Below are positions 610-11,511 of a DNA stretch of 11,511 nucleotides, one piece after another. The stretch lies in IMG/VR virus record IMGVR_UViG_2671181136_000012; one strand, written 5' to 3'. The notes beneath the pieces were generated by a model that saw only the letters and a program-made list of their open reading frames with translations, did not search any database and was not told the DNA's origin. Each line of letters opens with the position of its first letter. Within the stretch, counting starts at the first letter, position 1. Origin of the DNA: a virus. Taxonomy: Duplodnaviria > Heunggongvirae > Uroviricota > Caudoviricetes. A program made the position numbers and the translations under genes.

Positions 610-689
610 CCGCCATTAGCTTATCAGGAAGAGCAGACGACACGATAACAGGGTTGTTGGTGCGGGGGCGGGTCTCCGATGGCGGTCCA
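610..689 (+). pseudogene. Degenerate tRNA-like remnant (possible argN-type pseudo-tRNA)
   Basis: A perfect 7-bp acceptor-like pairing CCGCCAT (610-616) / ATGGCGG (679-685) is followed by T + CCA, and the 5' part reads TAGCTTATCAGG, like a tRNA D-arm. I could not fold a canonical anticodon arm or T-arm. Confidence 0.25.
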
Positions 690-702
690 TTATCGGTATT
701 CA

Positions 703-779
703 GCGTTGTTAGCTCAGCCGGACAGAGCAATTGCCTTCTAAGCAATCGGTCACTGGTTCGAATCCAGTACAGCGCGCCA
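703..779 (+). tRNA. argO: tRNA-Arg (anticodon UCU), argO/argU-like
   Basis: 77 nt with acceptor stem GCGTTGT/ACAGCGC (one G-U pair), anticodon loop CTTCTAA, T-loop GGTTCGAATCC and 3' GCCA. It resembles E. coli argU. Confidence 0.85.
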
Positions 780-886
780 TATTCATTCTTCCAGATTCCT
801 TTCGGCAGAGCCTTATACTGAAATATACCTGGCTCAGGATATTGTTGAAAATATTATATGTTTGTCAAAAATAAAAGTTCTGTTAA

Positions 887-1243
887 GTGTTGATTGAGTG
901 TTTGTTATACGGTCTAATGGTTTTTTCAGCATTAAATATTTATCATTCATATGGTGTGGGTAGAGTGAATATTGATGAGGCGTCGGGGTGTTTCATCCTT
1001 AGGCAGCGTATTGATATAGTCAATGCAGAACGAGCAAAGGCCTTCAGCCGTTTGACAGTTTTGTTCTGTACTCCTGATCGTCTTTCGGGAAGAGACGTTA
1101 TTATTCTGAATAGTGATGCTATACAGAGGGTTTGCGATGAGTTCATGGTGGCTAATTCAGAATTATTTGCTCTTGTTCAGGAGTACAACAGAATAGCCAG
1201 GACCTGTGGTATGGATGAACTTCGGATTACTCATCTGGGGTAG
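887..1243 (+). CDS. Hypothetical protein (118 aa from GTG 887; alternative start ATG 917)
   Basis: Six-frame ORF in an AT-rich segment directly after the tRNAs. There is no convincing Shine-Dalgarno sequence and no motif I recognise. Confidence 0.35.
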   Translation: MLIECLLYGLMVFSALNIYHSYGVGRVNIDEASGCFILRQRIDIVNAERAKAFSRLTVLFCTPDRLSGRDVIILNSDAIQRVCDEFMVANSELFALVQEYNRIARTCGMDELRITHLG

Positions 1244-1635
1244 ATACATATCTGGATTATCACCGGTTACGGTAAAAAGTGATTGCTTACTGTTTTTGTG
1301 AATGGCATTGCAGCAGCCGGATAATGTCAGTGCTGGCTGACGGTGTGCTGGTGGCGGGTGTGGTGGTTGCTGCTTTCCCGTTGCTGAAAAAGAAAACGCC
1401 AGACTGTTAGCCGGGTATCAGTTAGCGGGAGAAATTTTTAAATACTTCACAATTCAGGCGGTTGATTGTTGTCTGGTTTGCGGGGAGTTTGTTAAAAGAA
1501 ACTGGCATGGTGAATCCCCCTGTGCGGAGGGGCAATCAGCGAGTAGGTATATGGGATAATCGCGGATTCAGGTGCTGGTACTGAATTCACCGGGAGGCAC
1601 CCGGCACCATGCAATGGCACATAGCGCCACTCTCC

Positions 1636-1665
1636 AGCCCCTCTCCGGAGGGGCTGTTTATATTG
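1636..1665 (+). terminator. Rho-independent terminator-like hairpin
   Basis: Perfect 8-bp stem AGCCCCTC / GAGGGGCT with a 4-nt loop (TCCG), followed by a T-rich tract GTTTATATTGATTTT. Confidence 0.5.
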
Positions 1666-1690
1666 ATTTTGTCAGATGTGAGTAAACTCC

Positions 1691-2026
1691 TTATGGACTT
1701 TGTTGTTTTAGCCCATAAGGACATATTTGCAGAGTGCAACGGTTATTAAAGCATTCATTCAATACGTTATCTGTATTTGTAGGGCATTCCTGGCTGTTTT
1801 TGATTAAATTCCAGAATGTTTTATTGAATGGTACTACGTTGTAAATGGTTACAGGCAGCACTTTGTTATTGAGCATGATGCCTGTGTGAGTCAGTGTAAA
1901 TATACTTTCAGGAGGTAAGAAAGCATCCGATTGATACCAGATTATTAATTTTATTTTACTCCATATGACTGAAAAAGATATTCCGCATGATGGCTGGATA
2001 ACTGTATCAATCACAATCCACTTCAT
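1691..2026 (-). CDS. Hypothetical Cys-containing small protein (111 aa), AT-rich moron
   Basis: ORF on the minus strand with a good RBS (AAGGA, 6 nt before ATG at 2026). The gene is markedly AT-rich compared with its neighbours and is followed by a very AT-rich upstream region (2027-2270). Product has several Cys in the C-terminal half; no family recognised. Confidence 0.5.
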
Positions 2027-2286
2027 TTAGTTTCCTTGTTTATGCCTTGCTGGTGATGTTCTGAAAAGTATAAATGATATTTTTGATTGTAAACCATAGA
2101 GCAGAATTATTTTTCTGATGTTGTTTATTGTTTATTTAAATGCAGGGTGGTTTATATCTCGTCTTGTAGTTTATCCATGCATATCTGCTTGATGATGAGG
2201 TTTTTAATTAAGGTATGGTTTTGTGTTTTTTCTGTATTACATGTCAGGTATTTTAAAGAATCATTTTTCAGATGGTGGAAAGAACC

Positions 2287-4140
2287 ATGGCATTTAAACA
2301 CTATGATGTTGTCAGGGCGGCGTCGCCGTCAGATCTTGCGGAAAAGCTGACACATAAACTGAAAGAGGGCTGGCAGCCGTTTGGTAGTCCGGTGGCCATA
2401 ACCCCTTATACCCTGATGCAGGCGATTGCAGCAGAAGGTGATGTGGTCGTCAGTGGTGCAACTGAGCCGGAGTGGTACTACGTCATCGTACTGGCCGGGC
2501 AATCCAATGCCATGGCTTACGGTGAAGGGCTTCCGCTTCCGGATTCATACGATGCGCCCCATCCGCGCATTAAGCAACTGGCCCGTCGTAACACAGTGAC
2601 TCCCGGTGGTGAAGTATGCGTATTTAACGACATCATTCCTGCTGACCATTGTCTGCATGATGTTCAGGATATGAGTACGATTAACCATCCCCGGGCTGAC
2701 CTGAGCAAAGGGCAGTACGGCTGTGTCGGACAGGGCTTACATATTGCCAAAAAACTGCTTCCGTATATCCCTAATAATGCGGGGATCCTGCTGGTACCAT
2801 GCTGTCGTGGTGGTTCGGCATTCACCCAGGGCACGGAGGGGACATTCAGCGAGTCCACGGGGGCCAGTCAGGATTCGGCTCGCTGGGGAGTGGGTAAGCC
2901 GTTATATCAGGATCTGCTTTTCCGCACGAAGGCAGCATTGCAGAAAAACCCGAAAAACGTTTTGCTGGCGATATGCTGGATGCAGGGGGAATTCGATATG
3001 ACGAATGCCAGTTACGCCCAGCAGCCAGCAGCATTTCTTGCAATGGTACAGCAGTTCCGTGCTGACCTTGCCGGGCTGGCGGCGCAGTGTCACGGTGGAA
3101 GTCCGGCATCAGTCCCCTGGATTTGTGGCGACACGACATACGCGTGGAAACAAGAACACGGTACGCAATATGAAGTGGTATATGGTGCATATAAAGGTAA
3201 AGAATCCCAGCAGATTTATTTTGTTCCCTTTATGACCGATGGTAGCGGAGTTAATACACCGACAAACAACCCGTCAGAAGATCCTGATATTGCCGGGTCT
3301 GGTTATTACGGTTCGGCATCCCGAACGAACAAAAACTGGGTATCATCAAATCGCCCGACGCATTTCAGCTCATGGGCGCGTCGTGGCATTATTCCCGATC
3401 GTATGGCAACTGCTATTCTGAACGTAGCCGGTCGCACCTTAGCCTTCATTAGTGGTAAGGCACCGGAAATCAAACCCTCGCCCGGCGGCGACACGCCATC
3501 GGGGCCGTCTGAAGATGCATCCGTACGCACAATCTCCCTGTTGCCGACAGCCGGAGATGCTGCTGCGCAGGGCTGGAGCATTAAGAATGGCGGAATTCAG
3601 TTGTCAGATGGTGTATTTAAGATCACCAAGCAGAGCAATAAAGCCTGGTCCCTGACGCGCCCGGTGGATGACGCAGTCTCCCTGCTGACACGGGGTGGCA
3701 GACTGAGCTGTAAGTTTCGACTGTCAGGCGCACTGACCAACAATCAGTTCGGTCTGGGAATTTATCTGTATACCGATGTAGCGTTACCTGACGTCGTGGC
3801 GATGACCGGGACTGGTAACCCGTTCCTGATGTCGTTCTTCACCCAGACCACAGACGGCAAACTGAATCTGATGCATCACAGGAAAGCAGGAAACACAAAG
3901 TTGGGCGAGTTCGGGAATTACAGTAACGACTGGCAGACGCTGGAGCTGGTGTTCACCGCCGGCAGTGCCACGGTTACTCCGAAACTGAATGGAGTGGCTG
4001 GCCCGGCATTCCAGGTCATAAAAGACAGTCTGACACTGGGGCTGAATGCGCTGACGCTGACGGATATTACCAAAAATGCAACGTATGGCGTTGAGATAGA
4101 AAGTCTGGTGCTGGAGATAAATGCACCGGCATCATCATAA
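2287..4140 (+). CDS. nanS-p: Prophage sialate O-acetylesterase NanS-p-like (DUF1737 N-terminal region + SASA/SGNH esterase + C-terminal lectin-like domain)
   Basis: The N-terminus MAFKHYDVVRAASPSDL is DUF1737-like and is followed by the GQSNA esterase motif typical of SASA-family 9-O-acetylneuraminate esterases. Gene position (after the tRNA/stx locus, before the holin) is as in Stx and related lambdoid phages. Start taken at ATG 2287 (GGTGGAAAG upstream); the track ORF begins at ATG 2272 without an RBS. Confidence 0.8.
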   Translation: MAFKHYDVVRAASPSDLAEKLTHKLKEGWQPFGSPVAITPYTLMQAIAAEGDVVVSGATEPEWYYVIVLAGQSNAMAYGEGLPLPDSYDAPHPRIKQLARRNTVTPGGEVCVFNDIIPADHCLHDVQDMSTINHPRADLSKGQYGCVGQGLHIAKKLLPYIPNNAGILLVPCCRGGSAFTQGTEGTFSESTGASQDSARWGVGKPLYQDLLFRTKAALQKNPKNVLLAICWMQGEFDMTNASYAQQPAAFLAMVQQFRADLAGLAAQCHGGSPASVPWICGDTTYAWKQEHGTQYEVVYGAYKGKESQQIYFVPFMTDGSGVNTPTNNPSEDPDIAGSGYYGSASRTNKNWVSSNRPTHFSSWARRGIIPDRMATAILNVAGRTLAFISGKAPEIKPSPGGDTPSGPSEDASVRTISLLPTAGDAAAQGWSIKNGGIQLSDGVFKITKQSNKAWSLTRPVDDAVSLLTRGGRLSCKFRLSGALTNNQFGLGIYLYTDVALPDVVAMTGTGNPFLMSFFTQTTDGKLNLMHHRKAGNTKLGEFGNYSNDWQTLELVFTAGSATVTPKLNGVAGPAFQVIKDSLTLGLNALTLTDITKNATYGVEIESLVLEINAPASS

Positions 4141-4225
4141 AAAGTGAGCCAGTCAAATGGAAGGTATCGTTAAACTCACCGGTAGTGTCAGTGGGTCGTC
4201 TGAGATGCCTGCATGAGTTATCAGA

Positions 4226-4256
4226 GCCATCAGTACTTAACTGGTGGCTTTTTTTA
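4226..4256 (+). terminator. Rho-independent terminator-like hairpin upstream of the holin
   Basis: Stem GCCATCAG / CTGGTGGC (one G-U pair), 7-nt loop, then TTTTTTTATT. Confidence 0.45.
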
Positions 4257-4290
4257 TTGTTGTCAGCTTCCGGATAACGGGAGACGGGGT

Positions 4291-4506
4291 ATGTACCAGA
4301 TGGAAAAAATCACAACAGGTGTGTCATACACCACGTCAGCGGTGGGAACGGGCTACTGGTTCCTGCAGTTGCTGGACAGGGTTTCCCCGTCTCAGTGGGC
4401 GGCAATAGGCGTGCTGGGGAGTCTGCTGTTTGGGCTGCTGACATATCTGACTAACCTGTATTTCAAAATCAGAGAGGACCGTCGTAAGGCTGCACGGGGA
4501 GAGTAA
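4291..4506 (+). CDS. S: Phage holin, S21-like pinholin (class II, two TMDs) with dual-start motif
   Basis: 71 aa [71 protein letters not shown], closely resembling the phage 21 / Stx-phage holin. Two in-frame Met codons at 4291 and 4300 give the antiholin/holin dual start. RBS GGGAG at 4278-4282. The track ORF from 4213 overlaps the terminator hairpin and is probably not the real start. Confidence 0.85.
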
Positions 4507-4510
4507 TTCA

Positions 4511-5317
4511 ATGACTCAAAACTATGAACTGATTGTGAAAGGGATCCGCAATTTTGAGAATAAAGTTACGGTAACTTTAGCGTTACGGGACAAAAAACGC
4601 TTTGACGGTGAAATTTTTGACCTGGACATCTCGCTGGACCGTGTTGAAGGTGCCGCGCTGGAGGTTTATGAGGCAGCAGCCAGAAGGAGCATCAGACAGG
4701 TCTTCCTGGATGTTGCTGCCGGGTTATGTGAAGGGGATGAGCTGTCGCCGGAAAAGCGCCCCATAATTTTAGAGGCGCAGGATGTGTTGATAACCTACAA
4801 AGGAAAGCTACCGGGAAGAATTACTGGTTCTCTGAAGATGCCGCCGTCAACACTGCGGTCAGAAAAAGAGGCGTCTTGTCTGCAGTCTGAGTACTCCATT
4901 ACGGTTAAAAGTGCCGGAGAGGAAGGAAATAAACGTTATTTTATTGCGTCTGCACCTGATAAAGATCAGGAATGGGAGTGTAACCGGCCATCCTTTGTTG
5001 TATACGGAGATGGCGGGAAAATAACCATCTCAGAAAATGGGAAATTAACACCGCCATCGCACCAGCATAGTGAGGCGCTCATTGAATTTGCCATTGATTA
5101 CCTGAAGAACAATAAAAAGCAGGGGCTGATGAAGCGCATTGGTCGTTGCATGGGATATCTGCAGGTAGCAGCTGAGATTGAAATGATGGCCAGTGGTGCT
5201 GACAATGATGCAGTTGTGCTGGAGGCTCTTCTGCGTGATTTTGATAATACGCCCTTTAAGAAAGCACCTGTTGACTGGATGCAGCCGGGGATGACTTATC
5301 TGAAAGGGCGTATATAA
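4511..5317 (+). CDS. Hypothetical protein, 268 aa, inserted between holin and endolysin
   Basis: Clean 807-nt ORF with RBS GGGGAGAG (4493-4500) and a start 4 nt after the holin stop, so it is translationally placed in the late operon. Predicted soluble; no motif I recognise. Confidence 0.6.
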   Translation: MTQNYELIVKGIRNFENKVTVTLALRDKKRFDGEIFDLDISLDRVEGAALEVYEAAARRSIRQVFLDVAAGLCEGDELSPEKRPIILEAQDVLITYKGKLPGRITGSLKMPPSTLRSEKEASCLQSEYSITVKSAGEEGNKRYFIASAPDKDQEWECNRPSFVVYGDGGKITISENGKLTPPSHQHSEALIEFAIDYLKNNKKQGLMKRIGRCMGYLQVAAEIEMMASGADNDAVVLEALLRDFDNTPFKKAPVDWMQPGMTYLKGRI

Positions 5318-5326
5318 GGTGGCTCG

Positions 5327-5641
5327 TTATCTGTTGCTGGATAATCGACTGAAGATGCGTTCTTTTTGTGTTTTTGCGTAATGATTGTCCCACTCACAAT
5401 CAAGGTAGCTTAATTCTTCATTCAACCAGTTATTTATATTGGTCTTAATACGCATAAGCATGGGCTGTGTTAATGCTCTGGCGATAATGCCGAGAGTCAC
5501 AGGTGTGAGATGTCCATACGGCTCAGCCTGAATGGATTTTACTGCATCGTGTTCTTGTGGGAGGAGTAAGAGGCACTCTGATTTTACCCGCTCATTTATG
5601 GCTTGCAGGCATAAATCATAATTATGTTGATCGTTATGCAT
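5327..5641 (-). CDS. Hypothetical protein, 104 aa, convergent with the 268-aa gene
   Basis: Minus-strand ORF with a good RBS (AGGA, 6 nt before ATG at 5641). Its stop lies 9 bp from the stop of the 268-aa gene. AT-richer than the flanking lysis genes. Confidence 0.55.
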   Translation of the reverse strand: MHNDQHNYDLCLQAINERVKSECLLLLPQEHDAVKSIQAEPYGHLTPVTLGIIARALTQPMLMRIKTNINNWLNEELSYLDCEWDNHYAKTQKERIFSRLSSNR

Positions 5642-7321: not shown

Positions 7322-7333
7322 GGGCGGCGACCT
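7322..7333. other. cosN, the 12-nt cohesive-end site (GGGCGGCGACCT)
   Basis: Exact lambda cohesive-end sequence, preceded by the lambda right-end sequence ...CGGGTCCTTTCCGG.GATCCG....GTTACG and followed by lambda-like CGCGGGTTTTCGCTATTTATGAAAATTTTCCGG. Confidence 0.8.
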
Positions 7334-7509: not shown

Positions 7510-8055
7510 ATGAAGGTTAATAAAAAGAAACTTGCCGAAATTTTCAACGTGGATCCGCGAACGATTGAACGCTGGCAGTCTCAGGGACTCCCTTGTGTCT
7601 CCGGAGGTGGTAAGGGCGTTGAATCTGTATTTGATACCGCCATGGCAATTCAGTGGTATGCGCAGAGGGAAGCTGATATCGAAAATGAAAAACTCCGTAA
7701 AGAGGTTGAGGATTACAGGGCTGCCAGTGAGGCAGATCTCCAGCCTGGGACTATTGAGTACGAACGCCATCGACTTACGCGTGCGCAGGCCGACGCACAG
7801 GAGCTGAAGAATGCCAGAGACTCCGCAGAGGTGGTGGAAACCGCATTCTGTACTTTCGTGCTGTCACGGATCGCAGGTGAAATTGCCAGTATTCTTGACG
7901 GGATCCCTCTCTCGGTACAGCGGCGTTTTCCGGAACTGGAAAACCGACATGTTGATTTCCTGAAACGGGATATCATCAAAGCCATGAACAAAGCAGCCGC
8001 GCTGGATGAACTGATACCGGGGTTGCTGAGTGAATATATCGAACAGTCAGATTGA
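7510..8055 (+). CDS. Nu1: Terminase small subunit Nu1 (mosaic: divergent N-terminal DNA-binding domain, lambda-like C-terminal part)
   Basis: 181 aa. Residues after about 55 (IENEKLR...[55 protein letters not shown]...) are essentially lambda Nu1. The N-terminal wHTH region ([29 protein letters not shown]...) differs from lambda and, as I recall it, resembles phage 21 gp1. Confidence 0.9.
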
Positions 8056-8722
8056 TATTCTGCGGCGTGATGTACGCGCCGGGCTGCGAGCCCTGTTCAG
8101 GCCGGAGCCACAGACTGCCGTTGAATGGGCGGATGCCAGTTACTATCTCCCGAAAGAATCCGCATACCAGGAAGGGCGCTGGGAAACACTGCCCTTTCAG
8201 CGGGCCATCATGAATGCGATGGGCAGCGACTACATCCGTGAGGTGAATGTGGTGAAGTCTGCCCGTGTCGGTTATTCCAAAATGCTGCTGGGTGTTTATG
8301 CCTACTTCATAGAGCATAAGCAGCGCAACACCCTTATCTGGTTGCCGACGGATGGTGATGCCGAGAACTTTATGAAAACCCACGTTGAGCCGACTATTCG
8401 TGATATTCCGTCGCTGCTGGCGCTGGCCCCGTGGTATGGCAAAAAGCACCGGGATAACACGCTCACCATGAAGCGTTTCACCAATGGGCGTGGCTTCTGG
8501 TGCCTGGGCGGTAAAGCGGCAAAAAACTACCGTGAAAAGTCAGTGGATGTGGCGGGTTATGATGAACTTGCTGCCTTTGATGAGGATATTGAACAGGAAG
8601 GCTCTCCAACGTTCCTGGGCGATAAGCGTATTGAAGGCTCGGTCTGGCCAAAGTCCATCCGTGGCTCCACGCCCAAAGTGAGAGGCACCTGTCAGATTGA
8701 GCGTGCAGCCAGTGAATCGTAA
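8030..8722 (+). pseudogene. A: Terminase large subunit A, 5' fragment (about 229 codons), truncated by IS insertion
   Basis: Translation matches the lambda gpA N-terminus (MNISNSQ...[61 protein letters not shown]...ERAASES), then stops at TAA 8720-8722, which is created by the IS terminus GTAAGCG beginning at 8719. Confidence 0.85.
8246..8718 (+). repeat. Direct repeat copy 1 (473 bp, terminase A internal segment)
   Basis: Bases 8246-8718 are identical, base for base, to 10265-10737 (offset 2019) in every block I compared. Confidence 0.9.
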
Positions 8723-10264
8723 GCGACTCGTCAGAACCGTATTGATATTTACTGAGAGCTCAGATCAACTTTCCAGGGCAACAGATCGCGTACCCGGTTT
8801 GCCGGCCAGTCCTGGATATGTTCAATGACGTAACGCAGCCACTTTTCTGGCTCCACATTGTTCAGACGGCATGTGCCGATCAGCGAGTACAACACCGCCG
8901 CATGTTCACCACCGCTGTCGGAACCCGCGAACATCCAGTTTTTCCGGCCTACGGCCACTCCCCGTAAGGCGTTCTCTGCGATGTTGTTGTCGATTTCCAC
9001 CCAGCCATTACTGCAGTACACGTTCAGTGCATCCCACTGTTTCAGCAGGTATGCGAACGCTTTTGCCGTATCTGAGTGACGCGACAGTGTTTTCATCTGT
9101 TGCTGTATCCAGTCATACAGTGACTGCATCAGTGGCGCGGCTCTGGCTTTTCTTGCCGCCAGACGCTGTTCTGCTGAACAGCCCCGGACCTCTGCCTCGA
9201 TGGCATACAGTTCACCGATACGCTGCAGGGCTTCCGTGGTGATGTAGGTGGGCGCTCTTGCATGCACATCGTGGATTTTTCTCCGGGCATGAGCCATACA
9301 CGCGGCTTCCGTTATTCTGCCGGATTCGTATAACGCCCGGTAACCACCGTAAGCATCGGCCTGAAGCACACCGCTGTAACCGGCCAGGTGATTTTGTGGA
9401 TGGATACCTTTCCGGTCCGGACTGTACGCGAACCAGACCGCCGGGGGCATCTGTGAACCGGCGTTACGGTCATCACGGACGTAGACCCACAGCCGGGCTG
9501 TCCGGGTTTTACCGCTGCCCGGCTCCTGGACCGGGACGGGGATATCATCAGCATGGACTTTACCGGGCATCAGCACATACTGGCGCAGGACGTCATACAG
9601 CGGCTCCAGCAGTTCAGCAACAGCACCTGTCCAGCGCCCCAGTGTGGCACGGCTCAGCTCCACTCCCTGACGACGGTATATTTCTGACTGGCGGTATAAC
9701 GGCAGATGGTCTGCATATTTCCCGGTGACAACATGGGCCAGAAGCCCCGCTCCGGCATAACTGCGTGCAATGGGTTTTGAAGGTACTGGTGCCTGCACGA
9801 TATGGTCGCACCGGCAACAGGCCTGTTTCGGACGTTGTGTTTCGATAACCTTAAAGGCGCTGCTGATAAGCTCCAGTTGCTCTGACACATCACATCCCAG
9901 AGAACTGAGTTCACCACCACAGGCAGGACAGCATTCCTCTTCCGGCCGGATAACCCGGGTTTCACGGGGAAGTGAGGCCGGTAACGGTTTACGGGCTGAA
10001 GACTGGCGCAGGGCGGATGGCAGTACCGGGTCATATTGCTCACCCAGCGTTTCCGCCATTTCTTCCTGAAGTGCGCTGATTCGCTCCTGTGCTTCCTGTA
10101 TCTGCCGTTCGGTTTTTGCACGAAGTTTTTCTGAGCTTTTACCGAACTGCATGCGCTGCAGTTTTGCAACCAGCGCCTTCAGCCGGTTGATTTCGGAAGC
10201 ATAAGCCGCCACCCGCTGTGAGAGCAGGCAGTTGTATTCAGCCATCTGGCGGATGGTGTCCTGT
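8719..10264 (-). mobile_element. Truncated IS66-family insertion sequence (one terminus plus the tnpC-type transposase gene only; orfA/orfB and the other inverted repeat are absent)
   Basis: The terminus at 8719 begins GTAAGCG, the characteristic IS66-family inverted-repeat start. The segment contains only the 498-aa transposase ORF with 30 bp and 19 bp flanks. At 10264/10265 the element abuts internal terminase sequence with no inverted repeat. Confidence 0.75.
8749..10245 (-). CDS. tnpC: IS66-family transposase (TnpC/orf3-type)
   Basis: 498 aa with an N-terminal coiled-coil/leucine-zipper region, Cys motifs CCPACGGEL ... CCRCDHIV (zinc finger typical of IS66 TnpC), and the conserved C-terminal region ...[47 protein letters not shown].... 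Confidence 0.85.
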
Positions 10265-10737
10265 AATGTGGTGAAGTCTGCCCGTGTCGGTTATTCCAAA
10301 ATGCTGCTGGGTGTTTATGCCTACTTCATAGAGCATAAGCAGCGCAACACCCTTATCTGGTTGCCGACGGATGGTGATGCCGAGAACTTTATGAAAACCC
10401 ACGTTGAGCCGACTATTCGTGATATTCCGTCGCTGCTGGCGCTGGCCCCGTGGTATGGCAAAAAGCACCGGGATAACACGCTCACCATGAAGCGTTTCAC
10501 CAATGGGCGTGGCTTCTGGTGCCTGGGCGGTAAAGCGGCAAAAAACTACCGTGAAAAGTCAGTGGATGTGGCGGGTTATGATGAACTTGCTGCCTTTGAT
10601 GAGGATATTGAACAGGAAGGCTCTCCAACGTTCCTGGGCGATAAGCGTATTGAAGGCTCGGTCTGGCCAAAGTCCATCCGTGGCTCCACGCCCAAAGTGA
10701 GAGGCACCTGTCAGATTGAGCGTGCAGCCAGTGAATC
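10265..10737 (+). repeat. Direct repeat copy 2 (473 bp, terminase A internal segment)
   Basis: Identical to 8246-8718. Beyond 10737 the sequence continues as uninterrupted terminase A (…ERAASESPHFMRFHVACPHCGEEQY…), whereas copy 1 is followed by the IS terminus. Confidence 0.9.
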
Positions 10738-11511
10738 CCCGCATTTTATGCGTTTTCATGTTGCCTGCCCGCACTGCGGGGAGGAGCAGTACCTTAAATT
10801 TGGCGATAAAGAGACGCCGTTTGGCCTCAAATGGACGCCGGATGATCCCTCCAGCGTGTTTTATCTCTGCGAACATAATGCCTGCGTCATCCGCCAGCAG
10901 GAGCTGGACTTCACTGATGCCCGTTATATCTGCGAAAAGACCGGGATCTGGACCCGTGATGGCATTCTCTGGTTTTCGTCATCCGGTGAAGAGATTGAAC
11001 CGCCTGACAGCGTGACCTTTCACATCTGGACGGCGTACAGCCCGTTCACCACCTGGGTGCAGATTGTCAAAGACTGGATGAAGACGAAAGGGGATACGGG
11101 AAAACGTAAAACCTTCGTGAACACCACGCTCGGTGAGACGTGGGAGGCGAAAATTGGCGAACGTCCGGATGCTGAAGTGATGGCAGAGCGGAAAGAGCAT
11201 TATTCAGCGCCCGTTCCTGACCGTGTGGCTTACCTGACTGCCGGTATCGACTCCCAGCTGGACCGCTACGAAATGCGCGTATGGGGATGGGGGCCGGGTG
11301 AGGAAAGCTGGCTGATTGACCGGCAGATTATTATGGGTCGCCACGACGATGAACAGACGCTGCTGCGTGTGGATGAGGCCATCAATAAAACCTATACCCG
11401 CCGGAATGGTGCAGAAATGTCGGTATCCCGTATCTGCTGGGATACTGGCGGGATTGACCCGACCATTGTGTATGAACGCTCGAAAAAACATGGGCTGTTC
11501 CGGGTGATCCC
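10265..11511 (+). pseudogene. A: Terminase large subunit A, 5'-truncated remainder (from about codon 73, containing Walker-A-like KSARVGYSK), running off the window end
   Basis: Frame 2 is open from 10205 to the window end. The translation from 10265 matches lambda gpA ([25 protein letters not shown] ... WDTGGIDPTIVYERSKKHGLFRVI). An in-frame ATG at 10253 sits in IS-derived sequence. The track does not list this ORF because it has no stop inside the window. Confidence 0.8.

Follow-up and report, generated by a model that had tools for sequence, protein, structure and literature searches.

A terminase gene split by a truncated ISCro1 element between 473 bp direct repeats in a lambdoid prophage contig

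The window analysed here is one entire 11,511 bp contig of a draft assembly (CYBD01000048.1), and in it the terminase large subunit gene A of a lambdoid prophage is split by a truncated copy of ISCro1 lying between two identical segments of A. Judged by comparison with other sequences, the split gene is a private mutational scar in this one draft contig. The features on which the description depends are as follows.

7322–7333, + strand: cosN-type cohesive-end sequence GGGCGGCGACCT (exact match to the lambda sequence)
7510–8055, + strand: Nu1, terminase small subunit (lambda Nu1 homologue), 181 aa, intact (ORF; Pfam Phage_Nu1)
8030–8722, + strand: A′, 5′ fragment of terminase large subunit gene A, nt 1–689, 230 aa (ORF; Pfam)
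8246–8718, + strand: direct repeat copy 1, A nt 217–689 (exact self-match)
8719–10264, − strand: truncated ISCro1 (IS66 family), element nt 1–1546 (nucleotide alignment)
8749–10245, − strand: 5′-truncated tnpC ORF, 498 aa (ORF list and alignment to intact tnpC)
10264/10265, no strand: junction 2, IS nt 1546 to A nt 217, blunt (alignment to intact IS and intact A)
10265–10737, + strand: direct repeat copy 2, A nt 217–689 (exact self-match)
10265–11511, + strand: ′A, second, 5′-truncated copy of A, nt 217–1463, codons 73–487 (ORF; Pfam)

The terminase region

The terminase genes follow those for holin, lysozyme and Rz. The sequence GGGCGGCGACCT lies 177 bp ahead of Nu1, at the position expected of cosN, and although about 0.9 occurrences of this 12-mer with up to two mismatches would be expected by chance, the match here is exact; on its sequence and placement we take it to be the packaging site of the prophage. 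The end of Nu1 overlaps the start of A at 8030. An identical Nu1 protein adjoins an intact 641 aa gpA in nine of the ten loci listed, and in the tenth (L012) no A gene is called.

The domains, the sequence identity and the genomic context (cos, the overlap with Nu1 and a late operon following the lysis genes) identify the large subunit as being of the lambda gpA type, but the single frame of approximately 641 codons, which every close relative of this prophage has intact, is here in two pieces. A′ reads as far as ERAASES and is then closed by a TAA stop codon contributed by the end of the insertion sequence; its product matches the Pfam family GpA_ATPase (E = 2.8e-37, profile positions 3–188 of 247), and no other contig in the gene index encodes exactly this 230 aa product. 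The second piece, ′A, is in the same frame as the first repeat copy, starts just ahead of the P-loop and runs off the end of the contig. It is identical to an intact 641 aa gpA at 412 of the 414 residues compared (residues 74–487) and contains both GpA_ATPase and GpA_nuclease domains. An in-frame ATG is present at 10253, inside the insertion sequence (giving MVSC followed by N73 and onward), and is not preceded by a good ribosome-binding site.

The 230 aa piece could not form a holoterminase because its ATPase domain is incomplete at the end and the nuclease domain is missing, and ′A could not because residues 1–72, with the Nu1-binding N-terminus, are absent. From what is known of terminase function, A would thus be inactive and the prophage unable to package itself.

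The ISCro1 fragment

The segment from 8719 to 10264 aligns without gaps to the intact 2,699 bp ISCro1 of E. coli 98232, with 1,542 of 1,546 positions identical (99.74%, four mismatches), and the best nucleotide match found for it is 99.9% identical. Its truncated tnpC product contains the Pfam domains LZ_Tnp_IS66, zf-IS66, DDE_Tnp_IS66 (E = 1.2e-103) and DDE_Tnp_IS66_C and matches the NCBIfam model transpos_IS66 (E = 2e-143), so that on both transposase domains and nucleotide identity the element is a member of the IS66 family and a copy of ISCro1. The tnpC-proximal inverted repeat is retained, beginning with GTAAGCG at 8719, whereas the other inverted repeat (GTAACCG) is absent, the element breaking off internally at nt 1546; correspondingly, sequence matches from every other genome and plasmid end at 10264. 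Missing are IS nt 1547–2699, and with them tnpA and tnpB (approximately element nt 1620–2650 in intact copies), the first 19 codons of tnpC and the second inverted repeat, leaving nothing of the tnpA-tnpB-tnpC organization beyond the last gene. The first ATG of the truncated tnpC corresponds to Met26 of the 523 aa transposase, the native start being gone. An earlier note, made from the letters of the DNA alone, had described an element consisting only of a tnpC-type ORF, with neither the upstream ORFs nor the second inverted repeat; this description holds, and the alignment adds that tnpC itself is truncated at its 5′ end. With a single end and without tnpA, tnpB or the start of tnpC, the remnant would be expected to be immobile.

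Where the closest copies of the element occur, ISCro1 is usually multicopy, with 4–11 insertions per genome. Intact copies elsewhere are flanked by 8 bp duplications (CATCTGGA in strain 98232), in contrast to the 473 bp direct repeat seen here. We note that two private single-base differences, at element nt 1447 and 1512, lie close to the breakpoint. They could be the mark of an error-prone repair event, to go by their position, although the stretch that holds them varies among ordinary ISCro1 copies too.

The repeat and its junctions

The two copies of the repeat (8246–8718 and 10265–10737) are identical and extend not one base further on either side; they are separated start to start by 2,019 bp, with 1,546 bp of insertion sequence in between, and form the only direct repeat of at least 20 nt within the window. 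The earlier note had called the duplication perfect, and its extent is confirmed to the base. The exactness stands as a description but is less secure as a biological sign, since graph assembly may by itself have produced it.

At junction 1 (8718/8719) the element has a genuine terminus, GTAAGCGACTCG at 8719 being the sequence found at the end of an intact ISCro1 copy, and the interruption of A after ERAASES by an IS66-type end was thus correctly recognized at the outset. Junction 2 is of another kind. As had been noticed, sequence internal to the element is joined at 10264/10265 directly to A, without an 8 bp duplication, and the alignment places the join between IS nt 1546 and A nt 217. No microhomology is present at junction 2, the bases flanking the breakpoint differing between the intact element and intact A, and neither microhomology nor a sequence resembling an IS end could be seen by eye at IS nt 1546, A nt 217 or A nt 689. 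The join is free of Ns and of low-complexity sequence. The 8 bp that would have served as the target, AGTGAATC, occur only as the last 8 bp of the 473 bp repeat. With one IS end, an internal truncation and a long flanking repeat, the structure is, as proposed earlier, no simple product of transposition.

Comparison with intact prophages

When positions 8719–10737 (2,019 bp) were deleted in silico, the resulting 9,492 bp sequence was compared with intact prophages of other isolates. It is collinear with three of these (L018, L020 and L024) at 99.96% identity and is 100% identical to a fourth (L027) over 6.2 kb, and gpA is 641 aa long in each of the four. The rejoined A frame is open for 487 codons and is 99% identical to an intact gpA. 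It follows that a single haplotype accounts for the two halves of A as well as the repeat, and that the change is private to this contig. A derivation of the two halves from diverged prophage alleles is ruled out, since the rejoined sequence is 100% identical to a single natural haplotype.

Neither junction was found in 5,426 complete E. coli genomes, in the GTDB species representatives, in IMG/VR or the JGI metagenomes, or in plasmid or phage records. A single nominal match of 100% to junction 1 resolves into two separate pieces, the insertion sequence of that strain being at another site.

The end of the contig deserves attention, since it falls one base short of a recurrent C/T polymorphism in A (at A nt 1464; the T variant is carried by L014, L017 and EC17CM6) in an alignment of A in which 2% of columns are polymorphic. 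In another draft contig, L025, a break of the same sort lies at A nt 1487. The position of the contig end suggests a branch in the assembly graph, and a second A-like copy is probably present in the same genome. To the extent that this is so, the identity of the repeat copies and their linkage are not independent evidence. The start of the contig was also considered: a comparison of two alleles gave no support for a polymorphic site next to it, and A nt 217, at junction 2, is ruled out as an allele or repeat boundary at which a contig might start, A nt 111–258 being invariant among five alleles.

Origin of the split gene

The explanation that we favour, and to which we would give about an even chance, is that ISCro1 first inserted canonically at A nt 689 and that repair or template switching independent of homology then copied A nt 217–681 from an uninterrupted copy of the gene. 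The first step can be read from the anatomy of junction 1: transposition would have set the tnpC-proximal end of the element after A nt 689, with AGTGAATC as the target. In the second step, for which we infer the mechanism, a break or stalled replication fork within the element would have been repaired without homology on the IS side. The end on the A side would have invaded an uninterrupted copy of A, either in a second lambdoid prophage or on a sister chromosome, and copying would have run from A nt 681 back to nt 217 before blunt joining to IS nt 1546. The 1,153 bp of the element containing tnpA, tnpB and IRL would in this way have been exchanged for 465 bp of A, which together with the 8 bp target make up the 473 bp repeat, and the product would be A′(1–689) – ΔISCro1(1–1546) – ′A(217–end).

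Several observations touch on this scheme. The second A-like copy implied by the contig end could act as the template, and truncations within an insertion sequence fused to phage DNA exist in finished genomes, as in E. coli ET881. On the other side, the only source is a single 11.5 kb draft contig, and the intermediate of the scheme, with the complete element at A nt 689, has yet to be observed, its 230 aa product being unique to this contig. Given a multicopy ISCro1 and a probable second A, a short-read assembler should also have struggled with a 473 bp repeat present twice and 1.5 kb of insertion sequence. To our knowledge E. coli has no classical end joining, and a blunt join of this kind would therefore be a rare event.

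Of lesser, though still appreciable, probability is the reading in which both junctions are real and the collapsed repeats were threaded wrongly, the junctions belonging either to a tandem duplication or to two different prophages. In the first version, a plain tandem duplication of 2,019 bp (A nt 217 to IS nt 1546) would have arisen in an A gene already disrupted by ISCro1, giving the true order A′(1–689) – IS(1–1546) – A(217–689) – full ISCro1 – A(682–end), and the continuation of repeat copy 2 into the sequence from A nt 690 onward would derive from a second, intact A elsewhere. This has the attraction that a tandem duplication is a single event of a common kind and calls for no loss of a second IS. 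In its favour, too, a complete draft contig makes up the window and terminates one base ahead of the recurrent C/T variant in A; together with the similar break in L025, this makes a second A-like copy probable, which could supply the adjacency of A nt 689 and 690. A repeat node printed twice by graph assembly would presumably be identical by construction. Against this, assembly with read pairs should not, unless supported, connect the element through the repeat to A nt 690 and the sequence after it. The flanks of the element are 100% identical to one natural haplotype (L027), which a single locus fits equally well, and the second, full-length ISCro1 that such a duplication would leave after repeat copy 2 is not displayed in the contig. 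From the sequence of this one short draft contig, the structure cannot be told from a repeat-assembly effect.

We think it unlikely that junction 2 is altogether non-biological, a chimeric join introduced by assembly, scaffolding, gap closing or library preparation at a locus that in reality contains either a canonical full-length ISCro1 with its 8 bp duplication or an intact A. No collection searched contains a second case of the structure, which comes from a single draft contig, its truncation point is featureless, and a direct repeat of this kind would be expected to vanish quickly in vivo. However, the junction shares no bases between its two sides, so that a misjoin through k-mer overlap cannot be its source, and by de Bruijn or overlap logic reads containing the junction would be needed; moreover, A nt 217, within the invariant segment, is not an obvious repeat boundary, and there are no Ns or low-complexity sequence at the join. 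The earlier note had offered either a second rearrangement with another terminase copy or a mis-join, and the choice was apt for a draft contig that ends at a C/T site.

A real, single-step origin by aberrant one-ended transposition, with only the tnpC-proximal end of ISCro1 transferred to the target, seems to us improbable. Target-primed copying of the element would have broken off once 1,546 nt had been made, and the strand would have joined back to the target at a point 473 bp upstream, leaving a truncated copy within a long target duplication that is formally like a 5′-truncated LINE insertion. It would account for one perfect IS end opposite an arbitrary internal one and for a flanking repeat that behaves as an oversized target duplication, it dispenses with the two-step intermediate that has never been observed, and the chemistry by which IS66-family elements transpose is little characterized. 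But no further example came to light, in other lambdoid prophages the ISCro1 insertions are either full length with 8 bp duplications or simple deletions, and no pseudo-end resembling GTAAGCG or GTAACCG is visible by eye at IS nt 1546. The resemblance to LINE-1, in which 5′-truncated copies likewise have one authentic end, an arbitrary internal truncation and flanking target repeats of variable length, is pure analogy: LINE-1 is a eukaryotic, RNA-mediated retrotransposon and ISCro1 a DDE DNA transposon, and no evidence links their mechanisms. That the contig records a so far undescribed, abortive one-ended mode of ISCro1/IS66 transposition, which leaves an immobile, 5′-truncated copy within a target duplication of hundreds of bp and the packaging gene off, yet precisely switchable back by homologous recombination between the repeats, we regard as very improbable. 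A 2 kb circle of repeat plus IS fragment beside an intact A would give the same assembly graph, but it is biologically implausible, being unable to replicate.

Relationship to known systems

The closest parallels to the insertion that we favour as the first step are the copies of ISCro1 in the A genes of ETEC 98232, ATCC 43896 and 504237, in which the same element (99.7–99.9% identity) is present in the same gene and orientation, with tnpC antisense to A and gpA split into halves that are annotated as pseudogenes. Those copies are complete (2,699 bp, with tnpA, tnpB, tnpC and both inverted repeats) and lie after A nt 982 with the 8 bp duplication CATCTGGA, unlike the copy described here, which lies after A nt 689, stops at nt 1546 and is flanked by 473 bp. 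E. coli ET881 offers a parallel for the truncation. Its cryptic lambdoid prophage contains a Nu1 homologue, a fragment of A, a truncated IS66 transposase and a remnant of a tail-fibre assembly gene, and in it an IS66-family element in A was later truncated in tnpC and joined, independently of homology, to unrelated phage DNA. The second breakpoint in ET881 is downstream and represents a deletion in which head and tail genes were lost, whereas here it is 473 bp upstream of the insertion site, so that sequence has been duplicated and the rest of A kept. The nohD/terminase remnant of DLP12 in K-12 reflects the same type of IS-associated prophage decay.

Tandem or 'insertion' duplications in enterobacteria arise by illegitimate recombination or by template switching between sister chromosomes. 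The present structure resembles them in its direct repeats of a few hundred bp, in its novel, homology-free junction and in the RecA-dependent loss, back to the parent sequence, that would be expected of it. It differs in that a simple tandem duplication has its copies head to tail with one novel junction, whereas here 1,546 bp of insertion sequence stands between the copies and there are two novel junctions.

Implications for the prophage

A general caution is that duplications bounded by multicopy insertion sequences and multicopy prophage genes should not be taken at face value in short draft contigs. If the structure is real, known biology predicts that RecA- or Red-mediated recombination between the 473 bp repeats would remove precisely 2,019 bp and leave A whole again. 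The earlier suggestion that the defect would fix the cargo genes in the host is therefore too strong: the knockout would be unstable and reversible, with the A frame reopened by the excision, and a second lambdoid terminase could also complement the defect in trans.

The split gene would then be a rare natural case in which E. coli DNA was joined bluntly and without homology, and may hint at how IS66-family elements, or their repair, fail. As a further instance of a familiar class, it would add one more route to the inactivation of lambdoid prophages by insertion sequences. Since the target was duplicated and not deleted, the packaging enzyme would be lost in a precisely reversible way, and a subpopulation of cells could regain a packaging-competent prophage.

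Structure of the interrupted terminase gene

One long direct repeat is present in the window: 8246–8718 and 10265–10737 are identical over 473 bp, and the match does not extend by even a single base on either side. The intervening 1,546 bp correspond, with four mismatches and no gaps, to nt 1–1546 of the intact 2,699-bp ISCro1 of Escherichia coli 98232, an IS66-family element with the gene set tnpA, tnpB and tnpC. The left junction (8718/8719) is an authentic IS terminus, GTAAGCGACTCG..., and the right junction (10264/10265) falls within tnpC, 56 nt past the start codon, so that the fragment lacks the second inverted repeat along with tnpA, tnpB and the first 19 codons of tnpC. No bases are common to both sides of the right junction, since the flanking bases of the intact IS (...CCTGT/TGCG) and the intact A gene (...GGTG/AATG) differ. 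The exact repeat and the ISCro1 alignment bear out in every detail the earlier note's description of the repeat coordinates, the IS fragment and both junctions.

Features of the window
upstream part: DNA methylase gene, partial
527–602: tRNA(CAT), tRNA-Ile in the annotation of relatives, after the methylase gene
703–779: tRNA-Arg(TCT), after the methylase gene
1279–2026: DUF3927 ORF, then IraM/PmrD-like gene (minus strand), before the esterase
upstream of A: SASA/NanS-p-type esterase
upstream of A: holin, DUF1327 protein, lysozyme and Rz
4511–5317, plus strand: DUF1327 protein (268 aa), between holin and lysozyme
5327–5641, minus strand: 104-aa ORF without family match, after the DUF1327 gene and on the opposite strand
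7322–7333: exact lambda cosN 12-mer, GGGCGGCGACCT, 177 bp upstream of Nu1
downstream of cosN: Nu1 (terminase small subunit), overlapped by the start of A
from 8030: A (terminase large subunit), overlapping Nu1

The first A piece encodes 230 aa, matches GpA_ATPase profile positions 3–188 and ends at a TAA stop that the IS end supplies. The second copy begins at codon 73, immediately before the P-loop sequence, and exits the window at its end; it matches both GpA_ATPase and GpA_nuclease and is identical at 412 of 414 positions to residues 74–487 of intact gpA. The IS ORF encodes a 498-aa TnpC with all four IS66 domains and without its native start. By exact-protein look-up, no other contig in the index encodes the 230-aa or the 498-aa product.

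At two positions less than 100 bp from the breakpoint, element nt 1447 and 1512 (window 10165 and 10230), the fragment differs from both ISCro1 reference copies used in the comparison, and one of these differences changes TnpC Arg31 to Cys; the remainder of the fragment has at most one difference. The nearest database copy (TW14425, 99.9 %) differs from the fragment at only one or two positions, so one or both changes may not be private, and the stretch around nt 1447–1512 is variable among ordinary ISCro1 copies too.

The DUF1327 protein is 104–114 aa long in most related prophages, and its 268-aa form together with the 104-aa ORF makes up a module present in only about 164 index blocks, versus 5,058 for the Nu1 allele. 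The tRNA/DUF3927/IraM-PmrD-like stretch lies where Stx phages carry their stx genes; there is no toxin gene here.

Comparison with intact prophages

When the 2,019 bp from 8719 to 10737 were removed in silico, the remaining 9,492 bp were collinear with intact prophages of other assemblies. Four mismatches, all at window 675–2207, separate the rejoined sequence from prophages L018, L020 and L024, and none separates it from L027 over 6,199 bp; each of these four encodes an uninterrupted 641-aa gpA. The restored A frame is open for 487 codons, and both A halves and the repeat therefore represent one natural haplotype. Searches of 5,426 complete E. coli genomes, of GTDB species representatives, of IMG/VR and JGI metagenomes, and of plasmid and phage records recovered neither junction, and the lesion is private to this isolate.

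In three E. coli genomes (L010, ~16000–20546; L011, 16353–20546; L012, 15952–20546) a tyrosine integrase, AlpA and D5-type primase module follows the head-decoration gene in place of the major capsid gene, preceded in L012 by an 89-aa capsid remnant. The module resembles a satellite or island that has inserted in a lambdoid capsid gene.

ISCro1 has repeatedly inserted in lambdoid late regions. In nine ETEC-like genomes it is present after A nt 982, at full length and with an 8-bp duplication (CATCTGGA). In ET881 it lies after A nt 1128, where it was subsequently truncated inside tnpC and fused to tail-fibre DNA. WS3294A carries it between the terminase genes, EC17CM6 in the capsid gene and prophage L017 upstream of the lysis genes. 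We note that at six different late-region sites in six backgrounds (window 8719–10264; L001 9983–12681; L002 ~10129–10948; L003 14878–17576; L004 ~14900–17600; L017 ~2650–5340) tnpC is always antisense to the late operon (6/6, two-sided chance about 0.03), for which target or orientation preference, or selection, are candidate explanations.

Origin of the structure

Exact-protein look-up identified the source of the window as CYBD01000048.1, a contig of draft assembly GCA_001285985.1, all 11,511 bp of which the window covers; the assembly accession appeared in no paper in a literature search. The contig ends (window 11511) at A nt 1463. At the following base, nt 1464, E. coli A alleles show a recurrent C/T polymorphism, with T in EC17CM6, L014 and L017 and C in most alleles. 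Two representative alleles differ at 19 of 931 columns, so the chance of ending exactly at a variable site is about 2 %. Draft contig L025, which is unrelated, ends at A nt 1487, one base short of variable site nt 1488, and it seems that contigs end in A where co-resident prophage alleles branch apart. We read the end at nt 1463 as an assembly-graph branch of this kind, which makes it probable that a second A-like copy is present in the sequenced genome. That copy would supply a template or partner for rearrangement; equally, the linkages that run through the repeat, and the perfect match between the repeat copies, may reflect graph traversal rather than biology. The earlier note had proposed a second rearrangement, for example with another copy of a near-identical terminase gene, or a mis-join, and a second A-like copy supports these options. 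Recombination between diverged terminase alleles is not needed, both A halves matching one haplotype.

The left junction shows a normal transposase-made end. For the right one, an event independent of homology is required. Relative to a canonical insertion (A 1–689, full IS, A 682–end), the product has A nt 217–681 in place of IS nt 1547–2699. The structure as printed has about an even chance of being real, and the most economical second step proposed is a single event: a break inside the IS, invasion of an uninterrupted A copy by the A-side end, synthesis back as far as nt 217, and blunt joining of the new end to the resected IS end would together account for it.

Distinctly less probable is that both junctions are real and wrongly threaded, for example from a plain tandem duplication joining A nt 217 to IS nt 1546. 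This is mechanistically simpler than break-and-copy repair, but it predicts a second, full IS after the second repeat copy, so that the step from A nt 689 to 690 in the contig would have come from another A copy, for which the evidence for a second copy offers a source. A purely chimeric right junction is unlikely, as graph or overlap logic cannot make it without common bases and no allele boundary falls at A nt 217. The small probability that then remains goes to one-step aberrant ISCro1 transposition.

Biological consequences

An IS remnant with a single end and no tnpA, tnpB or tnpC start is unable to transpose on its own. In the 230-aa piece the ATPase domain is cut short at its end and the nuclease domain is absent, and the second A copy lacks residues 1–72, its sole start codon being poorly placed; in work by Frackman and Feiss the gpA N-terminus reportedly binds gpNu1. 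As neither piece is complete, this prophage copy should, judged from its sequence, be packaging-defective. Lambda terminase is a gpA–gpNu1 holoenzyme that binds cosB and nicks cosN (PMC2366019). The exact cosN shows that the cohesive-end site has been kept, and the prophage could therefore be packaged by a compatible terminase in trans.

Recombination between direct repeats of 473 bp lying 1.5 kb apart is frequent in recA+ cells, and induction of phage Red functions makes it more frequent still; recombination here would yield a perfect A gene, and a co-resident lambdoid terminase might complement the defect. For these reasons the earlier suggestion that the cargo genes are fixed in the host is too strong, and the note's reading of the structure finds partial support. 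In sum, the contig shows, in a common prophage, either a private IS-mediated lesion or an effect of repeat assembly.
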